A stretch of DNA of 51,618 nt, counting the filler, from Sphacelaria rigidula (Eukaryota), in NCBI GenBank assembly GCA_964200075.2. It is 4 parts of 4 records of this genome, joined end to end, with 100 filler letters (N's around TTAATTAATTAA, not from the genome) between each part and the next. Parts side by side here need not be neighbours in the genome. Positions count along the whole stretch, not along the records: positions 1 to 12,832 come from CAXNAA020003380.1; 3 more parts are not named here. One strand, written 5' to 3'. A program made the position numbers and the translations under genes. This document shows, in pieces, positions 6,447 through 42,400 of the stretch. The notes under the pieces are model-generated. The model was not told the DNA's origin. It saw only the letters and a list, made by a program, of their open reading frames with translations, and searched no databases. The stretch's first letter is position 1, and each line of letters begins with the position of its first letter.

Positions 6447-8192
6447 CAAGATTTCTACCACTTCAAGTAGACCCCAGAAGCAAGACTGGCGGAAACAGGC
6501 CAGCAGGAGCAGCAACAAGCAGCTGCTGCTCAGATGCAGGATGCAAGGATGGCGTGTCCGCGAGGAATGATGACGTCACGACCGTAGCTTCCCTGCAGCA
6601 GTGGGAGGATTTGAAGCGGTAAGGGAGGTCGCTGAATTGTACCGCACTTTACCCACGTCTGTTCGACAAACCTTCCACCATGTACAGCGCTACTGGTGTC
6701 CCCGTGGTGGTATGTTGTTTTGACTGGCGTGTATTTCTGGAACATGACATTGGAACTGCTGCTGTCGTGGCAAAGACCCTGAACTACCCGTATACAAGTA
6801 CTCGTGGCACAGACAGGTTGACAATTGTGCACTTTTGCACATGAATCGCGCCTGGCGTGTGCGAGGCTGCACAAGGAGGTTTGACGTCAGTGCCCATCCA
6901 CTGCCTAAGTGTTTATCTTGTTGGTTGACAGCTACGAAACCGTCACTGCGCTGAAATTGGTACTCCAGCGCTACGCAAAGGCGAGCGACAGTAGTTCCTG
7001 TTGGGTATTCACGCAGTACGCGGCACAACAGCCCTCTCACGTAAAGATACCCCGCGAGGTCATCGTTTACTTGTTGGTGTCGTCGGGGTGAGCTGCGGTA
7101 GAAGAATAAATACGGCACCAACGCAGACTCTGGATACCCCTCGCCATGGCGTGAAACCACTGCGGAGGATTCACCCACGGGGGGACACAAACCGATACAC
7201 ACTGTCCTTGATATCACGGGTTAACATCGTACCTGTACCTTTACTGGAGCATGAGGTGCTGCGTGAAATGCTTGTGTGCGCGCGCCGCTCATGCTGATCA
7301 TTGATGCGTCTGGTCATGTTCTCACTCTGCGTGTCCGGATTCTCTCTTGCGCGCCAAAATAGGGAGCCACTCGTCATCACGGACTTTACAGCGAGCTGGT
7401 GCAAGCCATGCCAAAAAATGACACCGGTATTTGAAGGTCTAGCCAAAGAATACAAGGGGTCGGCGGTGTTTTGCAAAGTGGACATCAATGATCTACCAGA
7501 CGTGTATGACGGCCTCAGCATCCCAGCATTTCACGTGAGGCAGTTGTGGTAACTTCTTTTCAGGATCGAAGTTGACCTTTAACGGTGGTGTGGCAAGTAC
7601 TAGTTTAACTGTCATCCTGGTCGCACCATCTTCACCTTTTTTGTTGCGTTGGCAAGGAGGATCGCTTTGTACTGTTGACCGTGTCCGCACGCGTTGCCTC
7701 GCCCAAAGTGTTTTCTTGAGACAAATGGGTGCTGCTCTAGTGATATGGGCGTTTTCTCCGCCAATATTTTTAATTAACCTGCATCCAAGTACAGTACATG
7801 TTTCATTTTGTGCCGACGAACGAATTTCAAGAGGGGAGGAATTGTGGTATACACGGTAGAGTAATCCCCCAAGAGTGACTCTGGTTCGGTAAGAGTGAAA
7901 AGCAGGAAATGATTCCCCTCGTGAACATCCGTATCTCTCCTCTCACCACTCCAGGATGTGCGACATGGGTTCTGAAGTATGAATCCAGGGGCTATGCTTC
8001 AACAGTGTTCCATGTAGTCGCGTGTGCACTCAACCCTCCTCTTGCCGCACCCATGTCATGTGTCACCTCGCTCCCCTGCTTCGCGCAATGTCGCAGATAT
8101 TCAAGGGCGGCGAGAAGGTGGACTCTTCAACGGGATCGAACGAGGAACGCCTGCAGAAAATGGTCGCACAACACTGCAAAAAGACCAACTAA
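6447..8192 (+). CDS. Thioredoxin (WCKPC active site), spliced; first exon and start codon not identified
   Basis: Phase-compatible GT-AG exons 6447-6618, 7363-7534 and 8097-8192 give ...SSCCSDAGCKDGVSARNDDVTTVASLQQWEDLKR-EPLVITDFTASWCKPCQKMTPVFEGLAKEYKGSAVFCKVDINDLPDVYDGLSIPAFH-IFKGGEKVDSSTGSNEERLQKMVAQHCKKTN*. This has the thioredoxin fold features: DFxAxWCxPC, cis-Pro IP and the FKGG turn. Confidence 0.92.
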
Positions 8193-11158
8193 TGTAGTTG
8201 CTGTTCGCTCTGTTGCCGAAATGCCCATCACACGTTGGTGGGCGGCGGGGGGGAAGGGGGGGGGGAGTGAACAATTTTGCGTCAAAAATTGTTATCAGGC
8301 ACCAAAATAATAAACGAATAATCTGTGTGTGGAACACGAGCTTTATCGCATGGGCCATACTGTGAGGTCAACCACCACGTTCACCAGAAAACGATGCTGT
8401 AGACCCTGCTTTTTTCCACTACCCTTGTACCTACCTTTTGTCTATCCTGCAATACCCCTTATTATGTTGTGAGAGGAGGACAGGCAGGGCCGTTGGGACT
8501 CCGTTTCTTGCTCGGGTTGGGCTCCCGGCGACGACTTCGTAATGCGAGAGTCTACAATCGCGTGGTGCTTCGTTTCACGACTCTGGTACCTACCATCACT
8601 TATCCTGTAATTTCCTTGCCATCTCCTAAGGAGAGGGCAGGGTCATTGAGACTACAAGTCTTGCCCAGGTTGGCCATCTACAGTAGGCGACGACTTCGCA
8701 ATCGATGTAGGGATGTAAAGCATTTGTTGAAGGAAAACGGTGCTGTCGAGGGGGAATGTGGGGAGAATACCGAACGACCAAGTTAAGTATACAGTGTGTC
8801 ATCAGCGTGCACCTCAGGGTGAGGAGCATGATGAATAGGAGATATTGCAGTGTCTAATGACTGTACATGTTTCCTACCCACGTCATCACAAGTTCGAAAC
8901 GAATCGGAACAGCACGGGCGGCCACTGGTTCATCCACTATATATCGACCCGTAATGCACTAGGATGGCCGGATGTCACGTGGAAGTTTACCGATGTCGAT
9001 GTAATGTACCGTCCACGACCCTTGCAGTGGAACTCACGCACTTATGATTGCAGGCGGGTTGCCGAGGTGGATTTGGGGATCTCACAATCTGCCGGGTTGA
9101 TATTGGGTTGCTTATGGCCATCTGGTGCTCAATAACCTTCCCAGTGTACCACCAGTGAACTGCAGAGCATTCATGGTATTTTTATTTATTTATGCAAAGT
9201 ACGCACGATTTTCTCTTGTATACAGTACGTAGCAGCAGCGGCGGCCGAACGCGTTTGATGTGAAATGTTTCATGCCAAATCACACGAGCGCAATCTTGAA
9301 GTAACATGTACACGTATTTATATTATTCTCGTATATAGCGACAAGAAAGAAATCGCCGTACCAGTGCGCAGCCTCAGTCTCTTTCCCCCTAACGACGAAT
9401 GCATATCACTGAGGCACAGCTTGCTCACCGGGACACGAACCAGCAGGCTTGCTTTTTTTTTATGCGCCTGTGCAGTAGCTGTAGTATACCATACCCTTTC
9501 TAGGACAAGAACAGGGTAGCCGAGGGGTGGTTCATCTCACAGACCCACAGTACGAAGTACAGTAGCATCCTGATCTCCCTCCTCCTGTACATGGTTTGTG
9601 TTCCCAGTGTGTACTTGAGTCAGTGAACCGGAAGTCAGCACGCTGCTTGCACCCTTCTCCATACAATCAATTGACGTCGCAGCCTCCGACCGCATGTCAA
9701 GAGAAAGCGTGAAATTGACCGTGACAAGTGGCCGAGTGTCCACTTTGACCCGACGTACTGTGTACTCGCGTATCGATTTCTCAATTCCAAAGTTGCCAGT
9801 CCATCCTCGTGAGCATCGACATACACTATACACTATTATATATGGCTGACACTCTAGATCTGATATACGTATCTCAATTCCTCCGAGTCCAAGTCTTCTG
9901 CCGGTCATCTCTCGTACGCATCTACAACATACACGGCTGTGGTGAACGCAACTGCCCTACTTATGGTGAAGTTACGACACGCCCCACCAAACAACAGCAT
10001 TAGCGAACATACCACCCCCCCCTCCTTCCACACACGCCCAATAGCATGCGTAGTGGCTCCCACTTCTAGTTCCCCCGCTATGCGCCCTCCCACTACCCAA
10101 TCTCATCTTCCACGTATGCTTCATGGTACTGTCATAGCCCATTTATCACTCTCTCTACAAACCTGCTGAGACACTCGACTGATCTTTCTTCTTATTCCAT
10201 TCTTTATCTGCACTGGTTTACCCTCCCTATATATAATTTTTATTTGCAACAAAAATACTCGCTTCAAAAATATCGTTGGTCGGCCCGTCTGCGTGTTTCC
10301 CTTCCAAACTATTTGCAACAGCAAACAAAAACAAGAAAAGCGAACAAAACAGCTACTCCTTTCGCCGTCACATGGGGTGAATTCGCTCACCTCACGGCGC
10401 GCAACAAAATCAAGGGTGCTACAAAAACTTTCCTTTCAAAACGTCCCAAAATCGTACGGAGATCACAACAAGTATGATCAGGACCAAAGGCACGAAGATG
10501 CCCTGAATTGTTCGAACTGCTTCCATCTCAAAACGGGAGTGTTTAGCGTAAAATTCTGCGACACTACGGTACACTCCTAGCGTCGCAACCGCATCCCGTA
10601 CCCCCAGTCCTGTGGAAAACATAAAACCGTATTTGTTTTGCCAGGAGCAAACAAGTGCAACCCCCCAACACCCTACACGCATATAAATACCGATGCCTGT
10701 CGACTTCTTCGTTCGATTCTGTCAGCACGAATTTACGTACACTTGTCCTTGTACTTGTAGTAAATGCATAGGTTTCTCTGCGCACATCTTAAACCCCATA
10801 AATTTTGTTCTCGCCCCCCTTCCCGCGCATCGACTTTCTGTTCATCCACCGACACGGTGAGCAACCTTGCGCCATAAGGTCCTCGCGCATATCGTTCAAC
10901 ATGTAGCCCCCGGCCGAAAAAAACTGGTGATATCATCGCAGCTTCCTGAGGCAACTCAGACAGAACCGTTCTCTATCCATGTCGTAGCTGGGTGGCACGA
11001 CATTCGACCCTACGCTCGTTCACCAACCCTACGCCACATGCTTGTTGGTCCACATCTTAGCCGTGTGAAAACGCTCAAGCACCCATCTTGTATGGTCATG
11101 TTATCATCGCCGACAAAGTGACATATGTGTCACTGGCGTCTCTTTCAACCGCGTGCCG

Positions 11159-12461
11159 TTATCCGACGATGTGCTGAAAGTGGCTGGTGGCGCCGTGCAT
11201 GGCCCACACCTCCTCGATAGCATCCTTCAGCTCGTCGGAGTTGATGTCGTTCACGCACACCGAGTTTCCCACCGAGCCGGACACAAGGGGTACGCGCTGC
11301 TTGCCATGGCGGTGTTCTACAGCATCCAGCAGAGCCTGCATGAGTCAATTGGGAACCGGATTCCAATATGCGCCATTAGTGAATGTCATTAAGTTGAAAA
11401 AAATATCTCGTTCCCAACATAAAAACAGACCCGAGACGTGTGTCGTATACTGTACAGAAACAAGCCACCCTTGGAACTACACTGGAAGCAAAAGGAAACA
11501 AGGGCGCCTAGTGAGGGGATGCCCGTTTTACATACTTGCTTTTTCCGTCTTAGTTTATGTTGTTTTTTTCGTGTTTCTTTTTTTCCTCTCTCGAGTTTTT
11601 CCTTGAGCGAAGTGCTCTGTTCATCAATCTTGGCCACGTCCATATATTTTGACCACTGCCGGATTAGCGGTGGGTCAAAGCGTGACATATAGCTGACTAA
11701 TCTCTCAATTGCGATATAATATTCCAAGATCATAGCACCAACATAGTGTCTCACCTTCTCCATGAGCTTGAGCTCGACGGCATCATGAATAGTGGGCAGA
11801 CCGATGTTCTTCATCGTCGAGAAAACACGCTCCAGCACTGCAGTGGAGATCATGCCGCGGCGCTTAGAGATGACGAGGGACAGGAAGCCGTCGACGTTGA
11901 CGGCCTCGCCGTGCATGATGTCGGCATTGGGCACCATCTCGATGATCTTGCTGAACGTGTGGCCGTAGTCCACGCAGCTGCAGCAAAACCATCGATTCAA
12001 GCAAAACGATCGAATATCGTTCCGGGTGCGGTTTCCGGCATGTATTTCAGGGTATCAATCGCGTATTCAGGTCACTGAATTCCAGTACATCGGCATTACC
12101 GGTCCAACGACGGGGCGACACATTACCGTGTTGGCATGTATACAAATGTGCCTTCGAAGTCGACCCTCACGTCATGACGTCAGCCCGTAAAATATGCGTA
12201 TTGTACGACGCTGCAAAACGCAGTTGGGCAATGGGATATTGCTTCATCTCTCAACTAGCTGTGAGTAGTCACTCATTACCTGAGTCGCACACGTGCAACA
12301 CGTTCCAATTGTGGTGCCAAAAACACGAGCACCGCTAGGGTCAGGACAATTCGACTCCTGACTCACCGCTCGAGCTTGTGCTCCCACAAGTTGGGGCCAA
12401 GCTCCTCGAGCATGATCTGGACGGAAAGCTGAATCACGCGGTCTGCCACACCGTCGGCGCC
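11159..12461 (-). CDS. Sedoheptulose 7-phosphate cyclase, EEVS-like (2-epi-5-epi-valiolone synthase; DHQS-like superfamily), last three exons; 5' part lies beyond the contig end
   Basis: Minus-strand exons 12461-12367, 11977-11755 and 11335-11159 splice in phase to GADGVADRVIQLSVQIMLEELGPNLWEHKLERCVDYGHTFSKIIEMVPNADIMHGEAVNVDGFLSLVISKRRGMISTAVLERVFSTMKNIGLPTIHDAVELKLMEKALLDAVEHRHGKQRVPLVSGSVGNSVCVNDINSDELKDAIEEVWAMHG...*. Motifs present: MLEELxPNLWE, RxxDYGHTFS, HGEAV and HRxGKQRxP. Confidence 0.88.
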
Positions 12462-12832
12462 CTGGACAGTATAGTCAAATCGAAGCATAGGGTGGGAAGG
12501 CACCGCGTACAATCAGACGAATATTTTTTCCACACGGGGTGGAAAAACAGGGAGAGTTAAACGTTCACCATGGAGGATCCCGAGAATAGGCGACATTTTT
12601 TTATCCACGCAAGCACTTGTACATGGTCAACAATATTTTCTGACGATATTTTCAGAATAACGTCGCCGGCAAGACCATCCACAGCGTGGTCGGAAGTGGT
12701 CAGAAGGTGGGTTAGGGTTAGGGTGTGAACGTTATCAACGGAAACGAAGTGACTTAGCCTCAACGCGAGCCGACTACAATGGTTTCCCTGGAAATACCTC
12801 GCTGAGAGAGTGAACAGTCGAGTCGCAGGGGG

Positions 12833-12932
12833 NNNNNNNNNNNNNNNNNNNNNNNNNNNNNNNNNNNNNNNNNNNNTTAATTAATTAANNNNNNNNNNNN
12901 NNNNNNNNNNNNNNNNNNNNNNNNNNNNNNNN
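12833..12932. other. Artificial contig-join spacer
   Basis: N44-TTAATTAATTAA-N44, a linker with stops in all six frames. Confidence 0.97.
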
Positions 12933-13024
12933 AAATCGCAGTTTCATATTTTTCGCAGCGTCCATGGGGCCATGCAAATATGGTTTCATCCCTATCCTGC
13001 CTGGGGGGGGGGGGTCAACTGTAC

Positions 13025-16000
13025 CTGGAGGGCCTGGTTCTTCTCGGCAAAGACCATGGACAAGTTGCGGTGCTCCTCTTCGATCTTACCCACGCTGCCT
13101 TGGATCAACGACACCAGTGCTGGCAGCCTCTGGCGCACAGCGAACTTTGCAAAGTCCCACTCGAACAGCCGCACGTACTGCCCCGCAGAAACGCCTCCGA
13201 CCTACAACCGCAGCGGCGCCAGAACAGAGATCGCGCAGACACGAATGGGCCAGCAGCGAAATTGTGCAAGAGAGGAAAGATGGGATATATGCACTTTCAT
13301 ATTGGCATGCGCAAAGAGGAGGACAAGAAGGAAAATATGCACATAAAATTTCTTCCTACTATATCGGAGAACAGCAAATGATTATTCGACTATTATACTG
13401 CAACCTCGAGTATTATTCATTCCGCCATAATCCGAAATCAAAACGAACAAAAATATGAAGCCCTTGGCACGCAGACATGAAACATGTACCGTGATTTTCC
13501 ATACCCAAAAACTCGTCTGGCAAATTCGTGTGTTGGGCTGCCCGTATCTTCGCGTTGATACCACGCATCGCATCAAACATATCATTGGTGTGCCTCTCCT
13601 ACAGCACTCCACCAACGTCCCTGACCCCTGGGTGGTCACCCTCCCGCACCCGCTCCCTTCCTGCCGCGTAGTTTTTGTACCTTCATGTCCAGCGATGAAC
13701 CCTTCTACCTTATCATGAGCCCCTTGGGCATGGACCCCTCCCTAAATTTGACCGTAGCTCCACTACTGTGAGGTACGCGTTACACAATCGTTCTCGATTA
13801 GACAACATACACGTGAGGGGGTAGGTGGGCGGGCCGCAGCGCAGAAATACGTCGTGTAGTCATTTTTTCAGACATCAATCGGGCTGTTCGAGCGTGATAA
13901 CCAGTAGCAATGCGAGACAAGATGTAAATCGGACTGTTCAAGCGTGATCACCAGTGGTAGTGCGAGTCAAGATATCAATCGGACTGTTCGAGTGTGATAA
14001 CCAGTAGCAATGCGAGACAATATATCAATCGGACTGTTCAAGCGTGATTACCAGTAGTAGTGCGAGTCCAGATATCGATCGGACCGCTCAGCCGTGGTGA
14101 CCAGCAGTGGTGCGACTCCAAAACACATCAATCGCAACCACGGGATAAGATATCGCCCGCCCCAAACCTGCAGACCACAAGACATGGCGTACCTCAGAGA
14201 TCAAGGGGCCTTCCACGCTGGGAGTGCGCCTTTGATTTTACATAATGTAGTAGGGTACATCATGAAAGCTGCAGACCAGACAAGTACAGTACAACATAAT
14301 TTTTTACAAGTCATTGCCGTATGCGTGCGAAGGTGTCAAAACGATCTCAGAGCTCTGGATAACTGCAAAAAATAAAAATAAAAACTATAATTGTACGAGT
14401 ATAAACAAGGGTACAGACATTAACAAGGACAGTAGGCAGAAAATGTCTAGCGCGCACGGGGTTGCAATAGAGTGATCACCGACCTTGAGAGGGTCCTGAT
14501 CCCCTGCAACTTCCGTGTACTGCTTCTCGATCTTCCGGACCATGTTCTCCACGAGCATGTCGATGCGCACTAGATCGTCGGATAGCGACATGAGGGAATC
14601 CAAGGTGCCCACCTGTGGTTTATGCAACGGCGCACACAGAGAGACAGACGCGGGCACATACGCTGGTGGTCAAACTCATATATTCAAGTCACTGGTTCTC
14701 CGGATCATCTCGAATTCGACACCGACAGCAGACAAGTCAACTTCTTGTTTTTTTCGGGGGGGGGAGGCTCCGCGGTACTTCCATCGTAAGAAAATCCACG
14801 AAGATCGCGGAAGTACTCACTGTGCTTGGTGTATTCAGAGTGGGTGGACCGAGGGCCTGTGCTCATCTAACGTTCGATAAAAACAGAGTGCAAAGCAAGC
14901 GACGGAATAGAAGATGCGTCCATCTCCGGAGACTACGAAGCCCTCTCGAAAAGGGGAACGGGGCGGGAAGCGGTGGAGGATGGCGGATTAGAACGCGCGA
15001 GAGATAGATTGCAGACATCGTTTTTTTTATATGCGGGGAAATGCAGATGTTTCGGTACCTACCGTACGTAGTACCCGCGCGAAACGGCACACACCGCGAC
15101 GCAATATTGTTTTGCTCCTCAATGTGGTGGATGAGAAACTAATTACCAGAATATTTCCAGGCGTTATGGCAACAGCACAAGTAGCGGCAGCAAAAAGTCA
15201 ATAGCCATCATCCACGTGCACGCACCTGCAGCGAGGGCAAGTCCACCTTGAAAACATCCGCATACTGCTTGACTGACGACTCCTTCAAGTTTCGGAACAC
15301 CTGTGCGTGTCGACATGTCGAAGCGAAAGTTTGTTTCACGCCAGCACGAAACACACAAGAGAGAAGAGGCAGCACGAGGAAAAAAACATGAATGGTGGCG
15401 CAAACGAAGTTAGTACCCGGGGACAAACAACTCGACATGGATGATGAAAACAATCAGCGGCAGACAACTACAACGGCAAACGTCACTTATCTAACCCGGG
15501 AGAGCGGGAGCAAACTTGCACCATCAAAGATTAGCGATAGATGTTCAAAAGCAAGGATGTCGCCGTCCAAGGGATCATTAGGGCGGACTTACTCGGCCTT
15601 CAAGCCGACCTTTATGCGATCTTTGCTCAACGCCTTTGGTAGATCAGTGCTAGTCTAAGTGTACGTGATGCGGGGACAGTGCTTAAGATCAGCCTGTGTA
15701 ATGTGACATACTTTCTTGGATAAGTTAGTGCGTCCTAATGATCCAAGGGTCGGACAGTCCAATGATTCGTCTGGAAATCACTTGGTTTTAGTGTAATTGA
15801 TCCGGACCGTATGAATCAATCCCTAAGCTTTGTTATCAGTGTTACAACCCAGGTACACGCAGCCCAGACGCGTGGAATGGCGCAAAAGTTGCGTGGATGC
15901 CTCTTGGACCAGCGGTCAACTTTTTTCTCCCTTTTGAGCAATCAGGCCAGGAAAATCGTGGATTTGGTGATTCAAACCCGTGATGATTCGTCCTAACCGT

Positions 16001-19000
16001 GTAATCATCCCTTGGACGGCGACGTCCTTGTTTTTGACGGGTCCTAACGTCGACGCCAAAATACGACAGGATTGTGGAGGGCAGACGTGACTTATCTAAC
16101 CCGGGACAGCGGGTACGTGTGTAGGTTGTAGCTGCTCACTCGGTGTAAGGAAACGGAGCGTGTAGAGACGCGACGCGGACTTGAACAGGACGGGCTTTGC
16201 AAGGAAAAGCAAGGCAAATCTTGGGATTGGACAATAGTCTAACCAGGCGGGGCGCCCGGACTGGGTGCCTCCCAGATGGAGAGTATGACGGAGCCCATAC
16301 TGGGGATCCAAGGATGGCGGTTTCGGGGTGACAGGCCCGGGATGACGATCTTGACAAGCCCGGAGTTGTTTGTAAGCGGGTCGGGTAATATAGAGGTGAT
16401 AATCACAACAACTGTCAACAGGTAATGAACAAGTGTGTCTCCTGTTCATTCCTCCCGATCGAATCTCGTCTCTTGTGATCAAAAGGTCCCCACGAGAAGC
16501 GCTCGCATTACTCCAGCAATGCCACTTTGGGCTCCTCCATTTTTCTTCTCCTCGAAAACCAAACACCTGAATGTGAGGAGGACAAGATAAAAAAATAAAA
16601 AAATAAAATGGGAAATGTACCACCCTGGCAGGGCGGTCCGGCCACGAGATGCCTACTTCCCCCCGGCGTGCGCCGCACGGGAAAGGACGATTCTACACTG
16701 GTGTGCACACAAGTCGCCACATCGTCATCATCCACCGTCAACGACCGTACTGCATCAAGCAGCGATAGTCTTTCGAGATAGTTGACATTTTGTTCCGAAT
16801 TGTCTTCCTATCCCTCATTGTCGCCGTGTTGTCACGGTTTGTATCGAGATGTCAAAGAAACCTCGACTTGCACCGTAGTCGAGTCCACATATAGCTCAAC
16901 AATCACGAATTGCACCTACCGTACTCGTATGAAAATATCTGCATCAACGGACCCACAACGCGACGACACGGGGCATCATTATGTGCATCCATGATTTGCC
17001 ACCGCATCCCGGTGGCTTAATGGTACACCTAACACCATCAGGGTGGGAAGAACGCGAGCTCACCCCTCTTCAGATGCGCTTAGTTCGGACTCTCGCTGTC
17101 AAGTATCTGATCTTCGCTGTTCAAAGCGTGAGAACGTACGTGAGTACCATAGACAGTCTGTTTTGTTCAACTGAGCTTGTTTCCGCGATGGTCGACGTGG
17201 TGAGAGAGGGTTGGTCATCATCCAATCCACGGTACCAAAATGCTAGGCTTGATAATCCCTTGATACCACGTGCTTGCCCCCAAGAATGGGGTGTGTGAAC
17301 GGACAGTATGACTAGAAGAAAGAATAAAAATCCAAGGAATATTTTAAAAAATGCCAAGCGTAACAAAAAAGAAAAAAAACGCGCATACAACACTCATACA
17401 TGAGCGTTCAAAATGACGATGATGACTCGGAAGATGACGAATCCATGCACGAGTTTGTCCTAGTGTCTTTACACAAGTTCATCATTGGGCGGGCGGGCGC
17501 TGGCGTGTCGGGTGCCATGCGATCGGCGGGAACTGAAGCAATGAGAGCGGCTGACTCGAATGAGATCAGTCCGGAGTAATAGGATTTTACCTCAATATTC
17601 ACACAATGTCAAGTCTCGCAAGGCCGTCCGAGGAGTGTTCCAGACATGCGTGTACGGATGCTCGTCCCTTCAAACATTTGTGCGATTAGGTCATTTGATG
17701 TACTAGTTGGTCAGACGAGGAACTCAGACTGGTGTTTTTCAAGAATCTTACTTTAGTATGTCGTTCGACACTCTCGCTTCCTCTCGTACACCATCAAGTT
17801 CTTTTTGATGACACCCGAATGAGAAAGAGACGGGAGGTGTACTCATGATCATGCATGCCATAGTCATAAAAGAGAGGCGGGGGGGGGGGGGGGGCGAAAG
17901 ACAACCTGAAGATTCTTGATCATCACTCTGACTTCCTCATCTGAGCAACGAGTACAAAAATACCCCTCGCGTTTGTATCCAGCAGGAGTATTTTGTGACA
18001 CTCCCGATGAGGCACCTCGAAGTACCCGTACACACCGCTATCGGGCCAGTGACGTGCGGACCTGCGAAACGACCACAGAAGCCCTAGGACTTGTGAACCC
18101 GTTATAGAAGCCCTAGGACTTGTGAACCCGTTATAGAACCCCAGGTATAATCTAGCATCGCCTCTTGGACTCATGACACGGAGGTCAGCGTCATGTGATG
18201 TTCCTTGCGACGCAGTCATCAATACGGAAGCACGGAACCAACCCCACCCCACCCCATAAAACGCATCACAACTGATAGATGGTTCATGTCGAGGCAGACG
18301 GCACATGATACCCCAGAGAAAAAAACATCCAGCTTTTGTCCCTCTCTTGGATGTGTACAATTGAATAAACTCTTCCAGCCAGCAAGGCCGTTTGTTTCCA
18401 AAAACACGGACTTAAACTCCCGCGGAGATCGGGAGTATGGCCCCTCTATGCGTCAATAGCACTGTGATTGCCCTCGAACGCTAGGTTAGACCAAACACAA
18501 ACTTCATTGGAGTACGACAAAGGTAGAAGTAGTCCATGACCATGCTGGACAGGAAGAGTTGGATATTGCGGCGTTTACACCACGCAGCATAGCACTCGCA
18601 GCTGTACCTTCCGAAGGCTCCGTCAGCACAATCACCGCACGAGCGAGACCTCGGTTTCTCGCGGGGATTTCTGTATTGTACTCTCTCCCGTGTTGTATCG
18701 TTGTATGACACGGATAGGTGTGTGCCAACCGCCCATGAGGCCCAGACCATCCTGGTTCTACGTAGGCGTCGTCTTCCATCAGAACAAGTATTCCGCCCTC
18801 TGGGCGTCATAAGAGTTGAACTTAGGGAGGAATAAAAGCACACGACGGTGCAGTAGACACCACCGCGATTGTTGACGGACTGAAACCCTTGTTGAACTTG
18901 CGAATCATCTCCGCGCTACACTCATCATCGGAAATGCAAGCACGCGCGCTGGTTCCTTAGCTTCATTCTCCTCCTCAACCGAAGGTACTCAGAATTAGTT

Positions 19001-22000
19001 TCGACGACCGACGCGGGGAAGGTCCTCAAGCTTACATGGCAGACCCATTTCTCAACAAGATACAAGGTATCCCTCCATTGCTCAATCATTATCACACCTC
19101 GACATTTGCGCATCAAAGCGGGGGATACACTGTACCACCGACGACCCTTGGTGCACAGAGAGATGTAACGTGAAGCTCTCAAAACCGTCACTAGGCGGGT
19201 TTTGCGATACGTTGGGCAATAACTATGATGAATCTTCAAAACGTGGGTCGTCCTTGATGCCCAGTAATGAAAGCCAATGGGAACTTTCCCCACGAAATCC
19301 CCCATTGGTGTACCATTGTATACTTCGAAGTAAATGAACACATGGGAAATATGTGGGAAAGCGGGAAGGATGGAGGGAAGACATAAAATCGATAAATGAG
19401 TCGCACTACTGTATCGGGCTTGAGCTCACTAGATAGAAGACGAGACGACTTATGGTGAGACCGCCGAGCAGAGATCCAAATGCGACACGAATGCACGGCG
19501 AGTGCGTTTCCCTCTTGCATTATCGCACACTCCTAGGTTCGAAACTGGCGAGACTCTCCCCCCCTTTCCCCCCCTTCCCCCCACAAGGCAAGCAACAAAT
19601 GAGTTCGCCCCCTTCCCTACCCCCCACCGTGAGTGAGTGCATCCCTTCCCCCACTGCAGGAAAATGAGTGCCCCTCTTCACGGGACAATGAATCTACGAA
19701 TGTACGAGAGGAGTGGAATGGACCAGACCAGGGTCTAAATTGCTGTTATGCGGATGAGGAGGTTGATGAAGTCACAGTATTGTACGGCCTCGAGGGGGAA
19801 GTCCATAGTTTCTGAGAGAAACCCCACCCCCGTCTGGGATAACGGTGAAAATAAGATGCACCTTGATGTTGCCATTGGGTACATGGCAAGCAGCGAAACT
19901 TGAATCATAGCACGGGGCAGCTACGCAGTGCCTATCGTGTATGGGTACCTCGCTAGATCGCTTCACACAGCAAGTGTAAGCTCGAAATAACCTACAATAA
20001 TGTAATCAAACGAGCCTCCTGATCAGATAGATGAGAGGAGGGAACAAATAGATCCGACGTTAAAACCACTCGTGAATCAACGTCGAACCACGGGTGAAGA
20101 AAAATGTCGTTCCTATTGGAGGGAGGACCAAAACGAATCCGTCTCGAATCCTGTCCCTCCTGGCTCAGGGTCGGGCCCAGGTATATGCTACATGGCACGA
20201 CTTGCGTTTGCGATATCGAGCTTTTCTAGGATAGACACCTACCAACTTATCACTGCCTGCCTGTAGCACAGGTGCAGTGCGGTGGGGTTAAAACTGAGGC
20301 AGAAGCACGTATTTATTGCAAGCCCCTCATCCTGTAGGTGGGTGCTTCTCAGCTAGGCGCGTGCTACTGGACTTCACGGCTTGACAGTATTATACGACAA
20401 CGGTACAGTGGTACGAGCCGTCGACTTGGGGCCTCTCGAACACATCACGACAAGTCCGGGGGACACGCGATTTGCCTTTTTTATCGCGACTTTGTCTTCA
20501 GCTGAATGCAGCAAATAAATTGGCGGGGGTGTATTAATGCTTCTGCATGCCGCGATCATGAGACCGTTGACCTCGCATCCCCACGCCGGGGTTTCCGCCG
20601 GACCAGGAAGGGGCGGGGGGCAGGGGCGTGCTCATTCATTGCTTGCCTTCGTCGTTTGACCATTGACCACGCGTCCCCTTCGAGACGGAGCACGACCAGG
20701 AAGGGGAGAGGAAGGAAGTCATAAATATAGGTACCACCTGAACACTACGTGGATACGGAAGCGAGCAACCGAACACAGGATGGTGGTACCTTCGCAGCGG
20801 AGCCCTCGATTGCACCGGAATGACACGCCACCAAGAGCGGCAGTATCGATAACAATCGCGCCAATATCTTCATCATGGTAACATCAGGCAGTGAGTCTCA
20901 AAAGAGCTCATGCTTACATGTATTCATATATGCACACCGTTGCTGTATTGTATTTCCTGATTATATATCCTCCGTGAGGGATACGGATGCTTCTCACAAC
21001 GAGGAAGTGGCACACAAGACTCAAGTGAGGCCTTCTCATGTTTTCACCTCGTTTTTGACGACATGCATGTACGACGTCTACAGTTCAGTGTTTTGCACGT
21101 TTTACGACCGTACTTGGTACATTGACCTCTTGGCGATGTAGCTTTTGTTATTACACGCTCTACAGTACGATTGCGGGACGGACGTGGAAAGGGGAAGGAA
21201 GGAAAAGGGGGTCGACCCGATAGCGGTTTTTTGGCGAAACATCACCAACATCGCTACCAAGCAGAAAGTGGCGATGGACCTTGAGTCCTTGCAAATCAAA
21301 AGCACAGTGAGCTACCTCTCCCTCTTCCCCTTGAGAGATTCGGTTTCATCAGCTGGTTGTGTGCATATCACCTACAGTAGCTGTAGACGGGTGCGACGGG
21401 TCCATGTCGCGGAGATACCCTTGACAGGGTCCACTACAGACCCTTCGAGGTCAACGTGGACGAAACACACGCATGCCGTCATCTCAGAGCTCTGTACGCT
21501 ACTCTTTGTATACTGTACAGAGACACAAGTGTTTTGAACACCATTGACCTAGGATGCACTCGTTTCTACATGAGGGTCCAACGGCGAAGCGCACAAAGAG
21601 AAGCAGACCACGTCTTCCGCGATGTCGTGCCGGCACACGTCAGGACAACTGTGGGGCAAGGACTGCCGTCCAGGTTAGCTCACTCGTAGGCTCTGCTAAA
21701 TGGTGGCCCACGTCTTCTATAATATAAAACACACAAGAGCGCATCTGGCATTCTGAAGGGGCCTGTGTTTTTCGCTTCGTCGATTGATTAAGCCCAAAAC
21801 AGTACATTTGGAAGCCCAATCGCGAAACAACACCCCGCACAAAGCACGAACATCGGAGTGAAGGGACGTCGGTCTTGCTTGATATGCGTTGTGGTAGGAA
21901 GCACACGAACGTTCCAACTCAACATCGTTGCGCCAGTCACCAAGAGCGAACCGGCTTTGGGGAAAAGCTGAGCAAAGTAAGGTAAGAACTGCGTGTCGGT

Positions 22001-22396
22001 CGAAGCAACCAGGGAAATAAGGTCGACGAACAGCTTGCCTCGTACACGTATATATACGCGAAGTTTACCGCCGGGGTCCGACCGACAATTGAAGCAGCTC
22101 CAACAAAGTGGTCAGAGATCGATGTCAGGTTCGGAGGGGGTAGGTAGCCACCCTTTCTGTCATGAAGCCATTCTGAGTAAAAGGAGGGATAGCGGCAGAC
22201 TGGCACAGCGCATATACGTGACAACGGGTTCGGTCATGCCGAGAGGCCCAAGAGTATCTGCTATGCTAGTAGTGTCTAGTACTCCTGTACGCTTGCTGCA
22301 AGTATTCTGTTTCCTGTGGGTGCTTGTCTCACGTACCTGCTCCGTGGGCTTGTTCTCGTTGGGTAACGAGACCATCCAGTAGTTATTCTGCGACAT
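13025..22396 (-). CDS. VHA-C: V-type H+-ATPase V1 subunit C, first four exons; 3' part truncated by the contig end
   Basis: Phase-0 GT-AG exons 22396-22337, 15300-15226, 14612-14484 and 13201-13025 give MSQNNYWMVSLPNENKPTEQ-VFRNLKESSVKQYADVFKVDLPSLQ-VGTLDSLMSLSDDLVRIDMLVENMVRKIEKQYTEVAGDQDPLK-VGGVSAGQYVRLFEWDFAKFAVRQRLPALVSLIQGSVGKIEEEHRNLSMVFAEKNQALQ. YWxVSLP, VGTLDSLxxLSDDL and FxWDxAK are subunit C (Vma5/ATP6V1C/DET3) signatures. Confidence 0.93.
13870..14119. repeat. 50 bp minisatellite, 5 copies, in a VHA-C intron
   Basis: Units start at 13870, 13920, 13970, 14020 and 14070. Consensus is approximately AGATATCAATCGGACTGTTCRAGCGTGATAACCAGTAGYARTGCGAGWCA. Confidence 0.9.
15545..16037. mobile_element. 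MITE-like element with ~36 bp terminal inverted repeats
   Basis: TCAAAAGCAAGGATGTCGCCGTCCAAGGGATCATTA (15545-15580) versus TAATCATCCCTTGGACGGCGACGTCCTTGTTTTTGA (16002-16037), 3 mismatches. No clear TSD. Confidence 0.7.
16998..17330 (+). mobile_element. tRNA-derived SINE, family B, old diverged copy
   Basis: The head CCCGGTGGCTTAATGGT..CCATCAGGGTGGGAAGAACG and the internal AAAGCGTGAGAACGT match the copies at 25384 and 28408. A-rich tail. Confidence 0.6.
18077..18138. repeat. Perfect 29 bp tandem duplication
   Basis: AGAAGCCCTAGGACTTGTGAACCCGTTAT occurs twice in tandem. Confidence 0.9.
20627..20695 (-). repeat. Family X dispersed repeat, partial copy
   Basis: Reverse complement of the family X core (CTCATTCATTGCTTGCCTTCGTCGTTTGACCATTGACCACGCGTCCCCTTCGAGACGGAGCAC), next to G-runs. 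Confidence 0.8.
21166..21306 (+). pseudogene. Exon-like segment antisense within VHA-C intron 1, weakly resembling a hAT transposase C-terminal dimerisation region
   Basis: Pyrimidine tract plus CAG acceptor, GTGAG donor, and 47 open codons YDCGTDVERGRKEKGVDPIAVFWRNITNIATKQKVAMDLESLQIKST. DP..FW....A.DL.SL...ST recalls the hATC motif by eye only. Confidence 0.3.
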
Positions 22397-22682
22397 GGCA
22401 GTAACGCTGTTCTCCACCTCTCCTTCGAGCTCTGTTTTCCCTCGTCAACGATACACGCCGACGTTGCAGTTTCTCCTCTCGTACAGCTATTGCTCGCGCG
22501 TGCACTCTTGGGTTTTTCATCGATACATTTGACTCTACCTCATTCAGGTACCCGTCTGCCATATACCTGACTCGCTGACACTGCAAAAGGGTACAACAAC
22601 ACAAATAGACAATATAGAACACGGTGTGCACTTGTTTCGTTATTCATCGTCACTCATGACCCAGTGATCTCGGGATTATGTC

Positions 22683-23033
22683 TGTGTGTATGTGTGTTGT
22701 GTGTTGTCGTCCCATCTATTCTGGACGCGGGTCTACACCTTTTAGTGTATGTGGGCGCACCAGCCTTTTCATTTTTGTTTTGTTTTGTTTGTTTTTTAGT
22801 ACCCCACCTTCCTTCTGCGGTGCTTGCCTTTGTTTTTTATCGCGAGAGGGGGGTTCAGCAATCCCTTGCCCTCCTCGACCGTTGAGTCGAATTTTGTGTA
22901 CCCCCGACATAGGATCTCTCCACTGTTGTTGAGCATTGTGTGAGAGAAAAGATCCCAATTCGCTCCGAGGTTTGAACCCACGAACCAACCGTCAGAAGGT
23001 CTCGAGGTTACCAACTGAGCCACCAAGGTGACC
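22683..23033 (-). mobile_element. tRNA-derived SINE, family A, copy 2
   Basis: The minus strand reads GGTCACCTTGGTGGCTCAGTTGGTAACCTCGAGACCTTCTGACGGTTGGTTCGTGGGTTCAAACCTCGGAGCGA... and is colinear with 1264-1616. Confidence 0.8.
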
Positions 23034-25761: not shown

Positions 25762-25861
25762 NNNNNNNNNNNNNNNNNNNNNNNNNNNNNNNNNNNNNNN
25801 NNNNNTTAATTAATTAANNNNNNNNNNNNNNNNNNNNNNNNNNNNNNNNNNNNNNNNNNNN
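25762..25861. other. Artificial contig-join spacer
   Basis: N44-TTAATTAATTAA-N44. Confidence 0.97.
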
Positions 25862-35700: not shown

Positions 35701-37575
35701 TGGAGGCTTGCCTTTTTCGACCGTATACTACGTAGTCCTTCCTGCCTTTTGGTACGTACAAAAGACATGCCTACGAATCTAAAATATTTATTTGTGCGCC
35801 TGGGTCGTTTTTCCATGCTCGTGGTTTTTCATTTGCGTGTATGTACGTTCACCTTTTTGATGTCTTTTAGAGGTGTTAGACCAAATTCAACCGTATGCGA
35901 CGTGTTTCGGTGCTTTCAAGCAGCAAAAATCCAACAAGGATCGGAGGAATGGGATCATCGCCATCGCTGGTTAGAATCGCCAAATCTACGATTTCTGAGG
36001 CCTAATTGCTAGACAGAGACAGAGAACAGTTGACCGCGCGCCACCAAGGTCTCTACGCACAGTTACCCCTTTTCCACGTACCTCGGCGGGGTATGCGTAG
36101 CTGGGGTGCAACCCTGAAAATGCAGGCTCAAGGATTGATAAGTACGATACGAATCAATCACACGTATGGATTATATATTCTTCAGACAAATCATTATTCG
36201 TCCGACCGTTGAAATCTAACCTGATTGTGCCATCTTCTCCCTCCGTCGTCTGCCCCCTCCCCCCCCCCCTCCCAGGTTCACCCAGGCTACCTATCCGCCA
36301 ACGCTCCCCTGCGCCACGTGAGCACGAGCAGAGCGGGTACTTACGTAGCTGTTGCGGGTTCTAGAGGACTGGCGATTTACAACCGTCCCACCGGCCGCTG
36401 GCGACTGTTCGGAAACATCGAGCAGGTAATGTGCACTTCACCTGTCCCATGAGTCTGGGTGGTTTCGGGGTGCAGGTCGTATCTCACGAACGAAGACGCT
36501 TACGATACCATAGTTAGGATCGCTGAAGAGATGCAATTATGGAGATGCTCATAGAAAAAACCATGAATCGAAGAATGAAATGAGTTGTAAACGCATTTTC
36601 GGGTCAGAATTGACCCAATTTAGGCTACTTCGAATCCAGTTTTAGCCAAATTTGATCGATTTTTTGCCATTTTTGGTTCTACATCAGAAGTGACGACGTG
36701 GCGAGAGCGGTTTCAGGACGAGACGTAGCTACCCTCTGTACAAGAAGCATGCTGCGAAGAGTTTTTTTGTTGTTGTTGCCCCCCCCGTGCTCCGTCTCGA
36801 AAGGGATGCGTGGTCAATGGTCACACGACTAACGCAAGCAACAAATGAGTACGTGGAGGGGCGGAAATACGGTCTCTTTTGGGCGGACTGAGCTTTTGGC
36901 GTCCGTTCGGCCGCATGGGTCAAGGAACAATTGTCCAAAACAAATATTGGTTTCAAGTAAAAGACGCCACATAATGCAACAAAAGAAGCAAAAATCACAT
37001 CGGACATGGTGGAGGGTCCGCATAAATATAACCACCCCAAGTTCATGGGACAGAGGAGATACAAGATCTGCAGCGGTGGCACCCCATGCAATTGTGGTGG
37101 CGGTTTTGTGGTGGCAGATGAACCGACTACAGGGGGTGCTCGACAGCCTACTCGCATGCATGCTTTAGCGAGTTTTTATCATGCCACATGAGCAGAATGA
37201 CCATGGTTCAATCCCCGCGAAGCAGTGATGGTTACTAGTGTATTATACCCCGAAGCTAGGCAGGTTATGGATACGTTGTCGTTCCCTGGTCTAGGGAGTA
37301 TGGTGGCGACCGTTTTTCAACCGCCGTCTTCCCCGCTGTCCTCCCTATGCCCGCCCACGGGTCACGATGTCACACTTCTGCCTGATGTGGTTCAACAGGA
37401 GCAGGACGTGGAAGTGGCGGGTATGTGCTGGTGGGGAGAGTCGGCGCTTGTGGTGGCGTCCCGTCTGAAGCATGGATTTGTCCTGCTGCTTTACTCCAGG
37501 AAGCATCTGGACGCGCAGTCGTTGCTGCTGCCTCCAATTCGGCTGCCGGTCGGCCTGCGCCCTCTGTTCATGCAG
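29275..37575 (+). CDS. RIC1: RIC1 homologue (RAB6A-GEF complex partner 1, WD40-like propeller region), internal exons; both ends missing
   Basis: Phase-compatible exons 29275-29442, 30190-30357, 31021-31557 (alternative donor 31583), 32024-32099, 33830-33987, 34422-35210, 36276-36425 and 37399-37575. Diagnostic stretches: VEFSANGCLMAVALVDGTV, CFSFDGWALSVGH..LTVWS, LTWGSEGYRL, YLSANAPLRHVSTSRAGTYVAVAGSRGLAIYNRPTGRWRLFGNIEQEQDVEVAGMCWW and LLLYSRKHLD. These match the RIC1 pattern YLxxNxPIR...W(K/R)LFGNxxQEQ. Confidence 0.88.
29698..29737 (+). repeat. (GTT)n microsatellite in a RIC1 intron
   Basis: About 12 GTT units. Confidence 0.9.
30841..30945 (+). repeat. Family X dispersed repeat
   Basis: Colinear with 78-170 and followed by a C-run. 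Confidence 0.8.
32302..32561. mobile_element. MITE, probably hAT-type, in a RIC1 intron
   Basis: ~36 bp TIRs TACACGTCGGACGGATCATGATCCGTCTGAAATAAC / GTTATTTTCAGACGGATCATGATCGATCCGACGTGTG. Imperfect 8 bp TSD GAATGGTT / AATTGGTT (6 of 8). Confidence 0.75.
33539..33757 (+). repeat. Family X dispersed repeat, tandem dimer
   Basis: Two head-to-tail copies (33539-33640 and 33656-33757), each preceded by CGCTGCAGC, downstream of a C-homopolymer. Confidence 0.85.
35926..36210 (+). repeat. Diverged dispersed repeat (second copy at 38045-38325), probable DNA transposon end
   Basis: Shared blocks ATCGCTGGTT..AATC.CCAAATCTAC, TTTCCACGT.CCT.GC.GGGGTA.GCG...CTGGGGTGCAAC.CTGAAAA and TACGAATCAAT. Both copies end in TATTCGTCCGACC. 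Confidence 0.75.
36787..36853 (+). repeat. Family X dispersed repeat, 5'-truncated
   Basis: GTGCTCCGTCTCGAAAGGGATGCGTGGTCAATGGTCACACGACTAACGCAAGCAACAAATGAGTAC, directly after a C-run. Confidence 0.85.
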
Positions 37576-38044
37576 GTATGGATGTCTTTGTTCTCGCATG
37601 CATATCGTGGATCTTGCCTTATTGTGGCCGTACTGCGTGTCCCATGTCTCGAGAGTTACTTGTTTTCGTCTTTTTCTCTTTGCCTTTGCCTTTTCCTTCT
37701 CCTCTGCATTTATTCTTATTTTTGTTTCTGTTTTGTTTTTTCTCCCTTTCCCGTTTCATTGGCTCGTTGGTTGTGTCTTGTGCTGTGGTAATGACCGCTG
37801 GTTTAGTTTCACCCTTTGAATGCGGTGTGTGTGTGCCTGTGCCTGTGCCCGTGCCCGTGCGCAGGGAGTCCAAGAAGGCGGGACCCGTCCGACCACCGAC
37901 GTTCTTTTCTTGCTCGTTGCCGGCTTGGGGTCGTACTTGCTCTATCGATTCAGGTAATATTCGCATTTTTGTTGGCCTGCGATCGTGAATGTTGTGGGTA
38001 TGTTGCTGATGACTGTCCTATGAGTTATTTCGTGCTTACACGAT

Positions 38045-38690: not shown

Positions 38691-38790
38691 NNNNNNNNNN
38701 NNNNNNNNNNNNNNNNNNNNNNNNNNNNNNNNNNTTAATTAATTAANNNNNNNNNNNNNNNNNNNNNNNNNNNNNNNNNNNNNNNNNNNN
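38691..38790. other. Artificial contig-join spacer
   Basis: N44-TTAATTAATTAA-N44. Confidence 0.97.
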
Positions 38791-38884
38791 TTTTCTTTTT
38801 GGTTTCTGCCTTTGGTATTTGGGCCTTGGCCCCGCCTCCCTTTTGGCGCGGGGGCTTTTTGGGGGGGGGGGGCTATCGTGAAGC

Positions 38885-41800
38885 GTGTCCTTCGTGCGCA
38901 CGAAATGCTACGAACGCGACTTTGGCCTCGACAACATTCGCACCGCGATGTGTAACGCGCACAATGATCGGAATTTTGGTTTGTCAACTGCATCAACCGT
39001 GGCCAGACCTGGAACGGCCATGCAGGCTACGACATCTGGTATTCAGTGTCACCTTTGCAAGGGTTTGGGCACTATCAACATGAGTGCCCGAACAACAAGC
39101 GAAGTCGGACACGGCCGAATAATCCAACACAGAGACGTCGAAAAACATGTAAGAAGTAGAGAAGTAACGAAGCATCAAAATGGTGCTCGTATCATAGAAC
39201 AACAACATACAACAACGCTGAGTGCAAGGCACAACAAAAAAAGCAGCAACGAACGGAAGCGCCAACATCACCAATGTAAGCATTCCCGGGTCATTCATCC
39301 CGCCGTCTGCCGCGGCGACGACTGCAAACAGCAATTCGTCCGCAACAGTCGGAGGATCCCAGCAACCTGTGATGACGGAGTCGGCTCCTCCAGTGTTTTC
39401 CTTCGGCACGTCCACCCCACCACAGGATGCTGGACTTTCAGAAAACACATTCGACCCCGTCAGTGCCTTCGGTGGGGATACTGGAGCAGCTCTCTTGGCG
39501 GCGGCACCAACGGCTCGGGCAGCCAACGACACCACTCCGTAACCTGGCTGATGGACAGTGGCGCGACCAGTCCCTACTTGGACACCAATCTCGAATCGGG
39601 TGTTTCAGCCCGGGCGAGTGAGTACACGGCCCTCGAACTGCAGTTCAAAATTATGACAGGGGGACAAAATGAAGTCGAAGCAGTTGCAACTGCCACCATT
39701 CATAGTACAGTCACCGACAGAGAAGAGAAGGCGCACCATGTCGCCCCCTCTTGCTTCGTCGTCCCCGGACTCGGGCGTCATCTATTCTCCGTGAAAGTGG
39801 CGACCAAGCAAGGCATCATCGCCATCTTCGATCAACATCATCCCCGACTGCAGACTTCATCGTTCGTGCTTCCCCTGGAACAATCGATCCACAACCAAGA
39901 CCTCTACACGTTCCGCATGAAGTTGAGCGGCTACGCCGAACATCAACTTGGGGTAACTATGCACGTCAGCACCGGCGCAAACCTCTGGCATCGTCGACTT
40001 GGTCACGTCGGCATCATGAGCCTGAATTTACTTCGAAAGGTGGAAGGCTCTGGTATCAGCTTCGATGGAACAATATCACCCTGTGTGACGTATGCGCTCT
40101 AAGCAAAAGCAAACAACACGGACATCTACGCGACGTGACGGACCGCGTCAACGACCTTATCGAATCTTCATCGGGAGAGGTCCCCACTGGAGCATCCCCA
40201 GGAGGGGGAGTCATTAAAGGTTCACCTCCAGCTACAACACCGTCACCTACAGCGTCCGATAGACGTCATCTCCCGCGCAGGCACGAGAAGTGCTCAACCC
40301 CGCGAGCTAAAGCGCCTGGAGACTTTGGCCACTTTCCACGCCAGGGCAAATATGCGAGACATCGCTCACGAGGATGGAGTTTCCCTCCTGGAGTGTGCGT
40401 ACTCTGCCACACACACCCACATTCGAAGTTGTTCGGAGGGGGAAAAAGTGCTCATAGTGCCGAACACCTTTCAAGAGGCAATGCGACTGCCAGAGGCGAA
40501 GCAGTGGAAGGCAGCATCAAACAAATATATAGAAAGTCTTCGTTCCAATAATGTCTTCACGCTTGTATCCTTCACGGCGATTCCTGCAGGGATGAAAGCC
40601 ATCGGATCCCAATGGGTGTATAAGGTGAAAGCCGACAACACATACAAGGGAAGACTCGTCGTCCAAGGATGGGGACAAGTACCGGGCATCGACTGCGACG
40701 GCACTTTCGCTCCCGTCTGTAGGCTACAGAGCATCCGTATGGTGCTTGCAGCGACCGCGGAGGTGGACTGAGAAATCTGGCAGCTGGACGTGCAGATGGC
40801 ATCTCTAAACGCGGCTGTTGAAGAGGAAGTTTACGTCGAGGTGGCCCCGGGCTATGAGGAGAACGATCCCGTAACGAGAGTTCCTCTCGTGATGAAGCCC
40901 CGGAAGTCGTTATATGGCCTTCGCCAGTCGCCACTGAATTGATGGAACACCATGGACAAATTCCTGGGGGAGATCGGTGCCACCTCTCTCGCTTCAGATC
41001 CCTGCATCTACATCTTCACTGACAACGACGACAACGACGACAGCAGGGCCTGTACCTCCTGGGGCGATACCGTCAGCACCGCTCTCGGAAAAAGGAAGGT
41101 TGTCGCGCTTTTCACCCTCTACGTGGACGATGTGCTTCTTGTTGGAGGGGACGTGGCAGTACTGCAGATGCTCAAGAAAAAGCTCATGGTTCGTTTCAAA
41201 ATGACGGGCATGGGAGACGTGTCACTTGTACATGGAATGAGAGTCACCCGAGACCGCAAGAATGGGACGCTCACTCTCAGCCAGGAGAACTACACCGAAT
41301 CGATGCTGGAGAAGTACGGCATGAGGGACTTCAATCCGCTGAGCACATCAGAAACGGGAGCAGAGCTGTCATTGAATCGACCGGAAGAGCAGCTTCTGGA
41401 TTCGGCGGCAAACACAGCGATACCAGGTGATCACCGGCTCTTTAATGTGTCTGGCACAAGTGACCCGGTAAAATATCCAGTTTGCTGTCTACCAGCTTGC
41501 GAGAGCGATGTCAAGACCATCAAAAGCACACATGGGTGCTGCGAAACATCTTCTACCTTACCTTGCGGGGAGTGGTAGTTTCGATATCACGTGCAGGAAG
41601 GGACGATTTCAGCTCACGGCGTTTTCGGACGCCAACTGGGAGAACAACCCGGATGACGGGAAATCGATGCCCTCCAATATCGCCATGCTCTCGAACGCTC
41701 CGGTGAGTTTCAAAGTCGGAATACAGGGTCTAACTGCTCAGTCGACAATGGAAGCGGAGCTTGTGGCGGCAGCGCTAGCAATGAAAGAGACTATGTTATG

Positions 41801-42400
41801 TTCCAAGATGATGATGGAGCTGGGATTCGACGAGGCATTTCACAGCGTTCCGGTTCACATCGACAACACCTCAACACTTCACGTTGCCGGTATCAGCACC
41901 TACAGTGGACGGACCAAGCATGTGTCATTGCGCTACTTCTTCATTCGCGAACTCATCAAGAAGCGGAGGATCACCCTTCATCACGTGGACACCAAGAACA
42001 ACATCGCCGACATTGGGACGAAAAACTTGGGCAAACAATGTCACCTGCATCTGCTGCACGTAATCATAACCTTGAGAACTTTCGATGAGGACGCGAACAA
42101 GAGAGCTGGTCTGATGCGTACTTTCTAGCGTGCGGTTGGATGACGACTGTGTTTCGTAAAAATGAAAACGGAGAAAGTGTTGGCATGAAACTCCAAGTGT
42201 ACATTGAAGGGAATATGCAGAGGTGGAAACATGCGTTTCCACAAGTAGGCCTGGAATATTCATCCGTCCGGATTTCTCCATCTCTCCTGAGTGCTACTTC
42301 CATTGAGGGGGAGTGTCAAGAATTTCATATTGCATAACATATGTGAGTCAATGTTCAGTAGCATCGAGGTAAAATACGGACGCTTGTTCACGCAGTAACA
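38885..42400 (+). mobile_element. Decayed Ty1/copia LTR retrotransposon (gag end, protease, pre-integrase, RT, RNase H, PPT, start of 3' LTR)
   Basis: Frameshifted Zn knuckle CHLCKG/FGHYQHEC (~39047-39087). Protease WLMDSGAT (~39545). LWHRRLGH and CDVCALSK. RT from PNTFQEAM through KGRLVVQGWGQVPGID.DGTFAPV to LYVDDVL (YVDD at 41120-41131), with TGA stops at 40769 and ~40940 and a frameshift near 41412. RNase H from FSDANW through STMEAEL and RTKHVSLRYFFIRE to NIADIGTK, ending at 42128. Domain order is PR-IN-RT-RH. The 3' end of the LTR is approximate. Confidence 0.95.
42305..42313 (+). promoter_or_regulatory. Polypurine tract of the copia element, immediately followed by TG at the 3' LTR start (42314)
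   Basis: GAGGGGGAG|TGTCAAG, about 180 bp after the RNase H stop. Confidence 0.75.

Follow-up and report, generated by a model that had tools for sequence, protein, structure and literature searches.

Among the closest described systems is that of zebrafish, in which EEVS and MT-Ox together give gadusol; both are also present in the ochrophyte Aureococcus (PMC4426668). That paper, which predates most brown-algal genomes, gives MT-Ox among non-vertebrates only for Aureococcus and Coccomyxa, each time next to EEVS. EEVS/MT-Ox/MysC neighbourhoods are described from green algae, along with gadusol-core MAAs (PMC7826186). For brown algae, MAAs are described as virtually absent, with phlorotannins screening UV instead, and another passage of the same source ranks the Phaeophyceae second among macroalgal MAA producers (PMC6165330). 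According to a review, EEVS and MysA differ in three residues, Leu267, Asp281 and His360 (ValA numbering) in the former versus Glu254, Ala268 and Thr347 in the latter (PMC10666671).

Osborn et al. (2015) list in their supplement a group named “Stramenopile EEVS” with proteins of Ectocarpus (Esi_0086_0074/CBJ27882), Phaeodactylum, Thalassiosira, Chondrus, Cyanidioschyzon and Galdieria, three of its members being diatom proteins, and the Ectocarpus sequence printed there has motifs identical to those of the gene reported here (PMC4426668). Its members appear in that paper's table under one heading together with Aureococcus and Coccomyxa, whereas our trees split the group from a vertebrate-like clade. 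Our gene is a direct orthologue of the group (81% identity to the matching Ectocarpus proteins, same clade); it differs in coming from another brown-algal species and in having its splicing seen in RNA-like contigs. The gene type is thus already known, its orthologues having been catalogued as EEVS in 2015, and we describe a further brown-algal member. Osborn 2017 is said to have surveyed stramenopile EEVS genes. A locus-tag search of published papers gave no match, and the main text of the brown-algal genomes preprint has no match to six pathway terms, though its supplements may annotate the gene.

The window, meaning the whole stretch of 51,618 nucleotides of Sphacelaria rigidula DNA that was analysed, consists of four contig pieces (12832, 12829, 12829 and 12828 bases), which we handled as unrelated contigs. 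Between them lie 100-base spacers of one and the same sequence, which put stop codons into every frame (12833-12932, 25762-25861 and 38691-38790), and the arrangement resembles a size-sorted pseudo-scaffold. Genes beyond the spacer were rejected as neighbours of the cyclase gene, the spacer being artificial and the contigs being treated as unrelated. The features on and at the end of the first contig are as follows.

12833..12932, no strand: artificial spacer N44-TTAATTAATTAA-N44, one of three identical spacers in the window
12462..12832, minus strand: 3' portion of an upstream intron, truncated by the contig end (RNA-like contigs; orthologue coverage)
12367..12461, minus strand: first visible coding exon (95 nt), an internal exon, with MLEELGPNLWE and the Leu equivalent to ValA Leu267 (joined frame, alignments, contigs continuing upstream)
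11978..12366, minus strand: intron of 389 nt, GT-AG, phase 2 (skipped in X4 and X9 contigs)
11755..11977, minus strand: coding exon (223 nt) bearing VDYGH, whose Asp matches ValA Asp281, and the counterparts of ValA His284 and His300 (Pfam, alignments)
11336..11754, minus strand: intron of 419 nt, GT-AG, phase 0 (skipped in X4 and X9 contigs)
11159..11335, minus strand: last coding exon (177 nt including the stop codon TAA), bearing in EHRHG the His that matches ValA His360 (alignments)
9083..11158, minus strand: probable long 3' UTR, 1.7-2.1 kb (spliced contigs, which cannot fix the transcript end)
6500..8226, plus strand: spliced thioredoxin gene (WCKPC), convergent downstream neighbour (Pfam Thioredoxin, E 2.6e-13)

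Once joined, the three minus-strand exons encode 164 aa in a single open frame closed by a stop codon. This frame contains MLEELGPNLWE, RCVDYGHTFS and HGEAV, and each boundary range tested offers a single GT or AG. Exon 2 alone matches Pfam DHQS_C (E 3.8e-13), and exons 1 and 3, each searched singly against Pfam, gave no match. The stretch is present in 11 of 13 sequencing runs, none of them recorded as RNA, and four of the runs were aligned (X3, X4, X9 and X10). Contigs from X4 and X9, two runs of one study, lack both introns; the X3 contig passes unspliced through both introns, and X10 gave fragments only. The presumed RNA nature of X4 and X9 is deduced from the splicing seen in them. On its short side, the joint across intron 1 is supported by just 30 letters in the spliced contigs. 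The read-through gene calls P0003, P0008 and P0016 depart from the conserved sequence at the point where intron 2 starts, which fits a conserved intron. The gene is real, transcribed and spliced, and the three-exon model of about 164 aa proposed in the initial annotation, including its three motifs, is borne out by the joined frame and the spliced contigs.

The contig ends 371 bp upstream of the first visible exon, at the spacer, exactly as had been remarked before. About 357 codons are encoded by 5' exons off the contig, and the visible part corresponds to residues 358-510 of the 517-aa Pylaiella orthologue. In X4 and X9, an overhang of roughly 255 nt continues from 12466 into the upstream exon, and its first 30 letters encode the peptide that precedes the exon in the Pylaiella orthologue; the 5' exons therefore exist and are transcribed, as the earlier suggestion to look for them in RNA-type data had anticipated. 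In the other direction, the spliced contigs extend to 9453 (X4) and 9083 (X9), which suggests a long 3' UTR. Contamination was considered as a source of the gene and rejected on the basis of the spliceosomal introns, the brown-algal best matches and the composition (GC3 of 0.82 in the exons versus a GC content of 0.42-0.50 in the introns).

Placed on PDB alignments, Leu21, Asp35 and His114 of the visible protein correspond to Leu267, Asp281 and His360 of ValA, so that all three discriminating residues are of the EEVS type; this comparison covers three sites of the published 14-residue fingerprint (Kean et al. 2014), some of whose positions fall off the contig. His38 and His54 match His284 and His300 of ValA. 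These two we take to be metal ligands, with the Glu ligand falling in the 5' part off the contig. The 164-aa fragment matches two plasmid-encoded proteins annotated as sedoheptulose 7-phosphate cyclases, as well as another bacterial homologue, with E-values of 2e-38 to 4e-35, a Nostoc MysA with 3e-25 and four AroB proteins with 2e-5 to 6e-7. For the Pylaiella orthologue (P0002), ValA scores best by sequence (E 1.9e-92, compared to 2.3e-59 for DDGS and 1.6e-36 or weaker for DHQS), and a predicted model of this protein (pLDDT 83) has ValA as its first-ranking match by fold (TM 0.91 by target length, E 1.3e-35).

ValA, the validamycin EEVS (PDB 4P53), is thus the best solved match to the orthologue by both sequence and fold, and the equivalents of its Leu267, Asp281, His284, His300 and His360 are retained in the window gene. 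The differences are that the two are about 43% identical, that our gene has introns and is not clustered with kinase or dehydrogenase genes, and that the orthologues bear an N-terminal extension of about 100 residues. Within the extension of P0002, residues 48-80 form a short, confidently modelled two-helix element (W..LP.E.R-like) that is common to the ochrophyte orthologues and absent from the shorter red-algal-like and viral copies.

That the gene encodes a shikimate-pathway DHQS or a MysA/DDGS, as might be read from Pfam and from some source names that give its relatives as 3-dehydroquinate synthase, is highly improbable, being contradicted by residues, scores and trees alike. The DHQS motif LN[L/F]GHT is absent, the window gene reading VDYGHT, and P0002 reaches 198 bits against the aroB equivalog, below the cut-off of 305. 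MysA/DDGS (PDB 5TPR; mysABC cluster of Nostoc, L145) shares fold and substrate with the window gene, but its three discriminating residues are Glu, Ala and Thr, compared to Leu, Asp and His in the latter, and it has HGH in place of HGE; moreover, neither MysB nor MysC is found near the window gene. Grouping with MysA/DDGS-like rows was rejected as well (p-AU 1e-95). The initial annotation was accordingly right to set the gene apart from DHQS and MysA. Its wording of a native, spliced and apparently intact EEVS stands for the native, spliced, EEVS-type character (three of three residues, ValA as best match), whereas intactness is established for the visible part, since about one third of the protein lies in the window.

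The nearest relatives of the 164-aa fragment are found in Pylaiella (84% identity), Ectocarpus (81%) and Discosporangium (78%), over 153-154 aa. A search with exon 2 returned 404 proteins, and the named organisms among the best 120 were brown algae, Tribonema, Chrysoparadoxa, Phaeothamnion, Fibrocapsa, Triparma and diatoms. In a tree of 49 rows, the window gene groups with brown algae (SH-aLRT 99) inside a red-algal/ochrophyte clade of 22 rows (SH-aLRT 100), and a tree of 114 rows agrees (SH-aLRT 98 and 99, respectively). The phylogenetic check proposed earlier against EEVS, DDGS and DHQS hence places the gene in the red-algal/ochrophyte EEVS clade, away from MysA/DDGS. AU tests were run on 35 of the 49 rows, the other 14 being long or redundant, and also rejected a grouping with the vertebrate-like EEVS clade (p-AU 7e-53), with two rows of which the window gene shares 37-39% identity. 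Because these are quick trees made without bootstrap, in which the base of the EEVS/DDGS tree stays open, the EEVS assignment leans more on residues and scores than on topology.

The vertebrate-like proteins cluster with a second set that is probably algal. Several proteins of the analysis (P0011, P0019, P0122, P0154, P0158, P0167, P0172 and P0176) were labelled by resemblance only. No fewer than two distinct EEVS clades occur in algae, and a tie to methyltransferases is seen only for the one that does not include the window gene. A crude hydrophobicity scan of orthologues found an N-terminal hydrophobic stretch above 2.0 in none of 22 members of the window gene's clade versus all three non-vertebrate-like members of the other clade that were tested. 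The ochrophyte copies may plausibly have come from red algae. That the clade has been kept all the way from Cyanidiales, with their small genomes, to brown algae points to a steady role in metabolism.

Taken together, the window gene very probably encodes an EEVS-type cyclase that would make 2-epi-5-epi-valiolone from sedoheptulose 7-phosphate with NAD+ and a metal. By analogy with DHQS, the metal- and NAD+-dependent enzyme would oxidise sedoheptulose 7-phosphate and then eliminate phosphate; reduction, ring opening and aldol closure would follow to give 2-epi-5-epi-valiolone. To judge from the orthologues, the cyclase would act in the cytosol.

A different product is conceivable, given the signature peculiar to this clade and the open base of the EEVS/DDGS tree. 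The stem branch of the clade is long (0.72) and its motifs are clade-specific, among them a Lys that follows GHTFS, a position at which Pro stands in bacterial EEVS. Tree position was misleading for EVS (PMC5133447), and EboD proved to cyclise mannose 6-phosphate (PMC12904256). No enzyme assay or product of any clade member was found in the literature searched, which covered few subscription papers. A red-lineage clade that kept fold and substrate class but changed its chemistry, as EVS, DDGS and EboD have, and whose product is not 2-epi-5-epi-valiolone, nevertheless appears unlikely to us, given that all three discriminating residues and both visible metal-site His agree with ValA and that ValA is the top solved match in sequence and fold.

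Taking 2-epi-5-epi-valiolone as the expected first product, we asked which enzymes accompany the cyclase gene. The thioredoxin gene is the only other gene identified on its contig; the splice joints 6617/7362 and 7534/8097 of this gene are present in three of four runs, and it gave no sign of being a pathway partner. Beyond the window, we used 27 longer clade loci out of 82 loci, 20 of the 27 being eukaryote-like and seven giant-virus-like, several being redundant. Ten tblastn partner queries (methyltransferase-SDR fusions, MysB, MysC, ROK kinases, MDR and SDR) had no match in the window or in the 27 clade loci, while the same queries matched control loci. In particular, no MT-Ox was found downstream of the window gene, whose upstream flank lies beyond the contig, or in the 27 loci, using as queries dinoflagellate-type methyltransferase-SDR fusions rather than the fish protein; intron-rich genes may evade tblastn, and many flanks are one-sided and short. 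The statement of the initial annotation that no MT-Ox partner is visible consequently holds, and the neighbouring or fused MT-Ox or O-methyltransferase for which it had proposed to look was found neither beside the window gene nor at these loci. Searches with algal O-methyltransferase domains gave mostly unnamed or dinoflagellate and diatom proteins (115 in one case, the best 120 of 1234 in the other); no named brown alga occurred among them, which in such crowded results is not evidence of absence.

In diatom-like loci, two genes recur next to EEVS. A 3-hydroxyisobutyrate/6-phosphogluconate-type NAD dehydrogenase adjoins it in three of them (L020:6461-7123, L039:4104-5622 and L042:9615-10844); we read this as local synteny, and the dehydrogenase is also a candidate downstream enzyme. 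A large TPR protein is the neighbour in eight (L015, L016, L020, L026, L038, L042, L050 and L056). It is CTR9-like by our reading, and we likewise interpret it as local synteny.

Could the gene nonetheless feed gadusol or a gadusol-core sunscreen, by means of an unlinked MT-Ox or of separate O-methyltransferase and SDR genes? The zebrafish pathway and the gene pair of Aureococcus (PMC4426668) speak for this, as do the green-algal neighbourhoods with their gadusol-core MAAs (PMC7826186) and the position of the window gene's upstream flank off the contig. Zebrafish EEVS and the pairs of Aureococcus and Coccomyxa belong to the same enzyme class as the window gene, and the first product would be the same. 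The difference is that the window gene falls in a separate clade (rejection of a common grouping as given above) and that no MT-Ox stands beside any clade member tested, whereas P0172, a member of the other, vertebrate-like clade, is fused to an O-methyltransferase. In addition, the 2015 paper gives no MT-Ox for Ectocarpus, diatoms or red algae despite listing their EEVS (PMC4426668), and among the listed papers that mention both gadusol and brown algae, no title or abstract opening shows gadusol in a brown alga. We consider the gadusol route improbable; the gadusol reading of the window gene is weak, and a sunscreen reading is unlikely. The initial annotation had proposed gadusol or another valiolone-derived metabolite, and it is the second half of this proposal that we regard as likelier, gadusol being disfavoured by the clade and by the lack of a partner match at the 27 loci. 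The window gene thereby corrects a tempting inference: an algal EEVS need not mean gadusol, because the link to methyltransferases is confined to the other of the at least two EEVS clades in algae.

Our preferred reading, which we hold to be reasonably probable, is that of a probably cytosolic EEVS whose product is turned by unlinked downstream enzymes into a C7 cyclitol other than gadusol. The cyclase belongs to an old red-algal/ochrophyte clade that stands apart from the gadusol-linked one and is unclustered in the genomes seen. Unlinked reductases or kinases would most likely convert valiolone into a small C7 cyclitol, which would probably serve as a constitutive solute or as a carbasugar building block. 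More tentatively, and with doubt prevailing, the clade as a whole (Cyanidiales, diatoms and brown seaweeds, with copies acquired by giant viruses) may start an unrecognised, widespread C7-cyclitol pathway of the red algal lineage with an abundant solute or carbasugar as its non-sunscreen product, possibly the orphan cyclitols laminitol and mytilitol, which have been known for long.

A carbon count and a branch point compatible with valiolone make a route from the cyclase to laminitol and mytilitol thinkable. Gabosine A, which has a C-methyl group, is listed in this family of compounds. Laminitol and mytilitol were both isolated from marine algae (PMC13058809), and laminitol is said to be stored by brown algae (PMC7397078). 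Such a route would require the loss of the C7 oxygen and the gain of a C6 oxygen, and no enzymes of this kind were seen. Old labelling work, moreover, reportedly derived laminitol from the methylation of an inositol, and we regard the route as very unlikely. A strongly conserved, unclustered cyclase of red algae, diatoms and brown seaweeds, the product of which was not found in the papers searched, can be put to the test in model species.

Members of the clade are also encoded on two contigs of giant-virus MAGs, with 53-57% identity and nested among ochrophyte sequences; MAG bins can hold host DNA. These copies are intronless (L001:6001-7176 and L002:5476-6603), and intronless members also lie on similar AT-rich metagenome contigs (further loci are L032, L041, L046, L061 and L068). 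On L001, a glycosyltransferase/PIG-L gene adjoins EEVS and a transketolase lies close by, and the EEVS of L061 has an mRNA capping enzyme in its vicinity.

The O-methyltransferase domain of P0172 and its relatives, apparently from dinoflagellates, is found fused, in different proteins, to vertebrate-like EEVS, to SDR (MT-Ox-like) and to transaldolase, and further to GST, aldose epimerase, sugar isomerase and ligase domains. These fusions suggest an undescribed modular gadusol-type pathway in dinoflagellates. Two proteins of about 910 aa, P0358 and P0362, combine an O-methyltransferase with a divergent DDGS-like cyclase (EYGNLWE, HAYGHTWS) that sits on a long branch with MysA.

Elsewhere in the window, the second contig carries an intron-rich gene for V-ATPase subunit C on the minus strand (13020-22400; one exon by Pfam match, the others by eye). 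On the plus strand of the fourth contig lies a fragmented Ty1/copia-type retrotransposon pol (38882-42128), with gag_pre-integrase and RVT_2 in separate frames. An exon-like stretch resembling the second beta-propeller of RIC1 was found at 37201-37791 on the plus strand (E 4e-10, under the family cut-off). Finally, a dispersed repeat of about 330 bp, possibly SINE-like, was recognised by eye on two contigs in opposite orientation (~1260-1610 and ~22690-23030).
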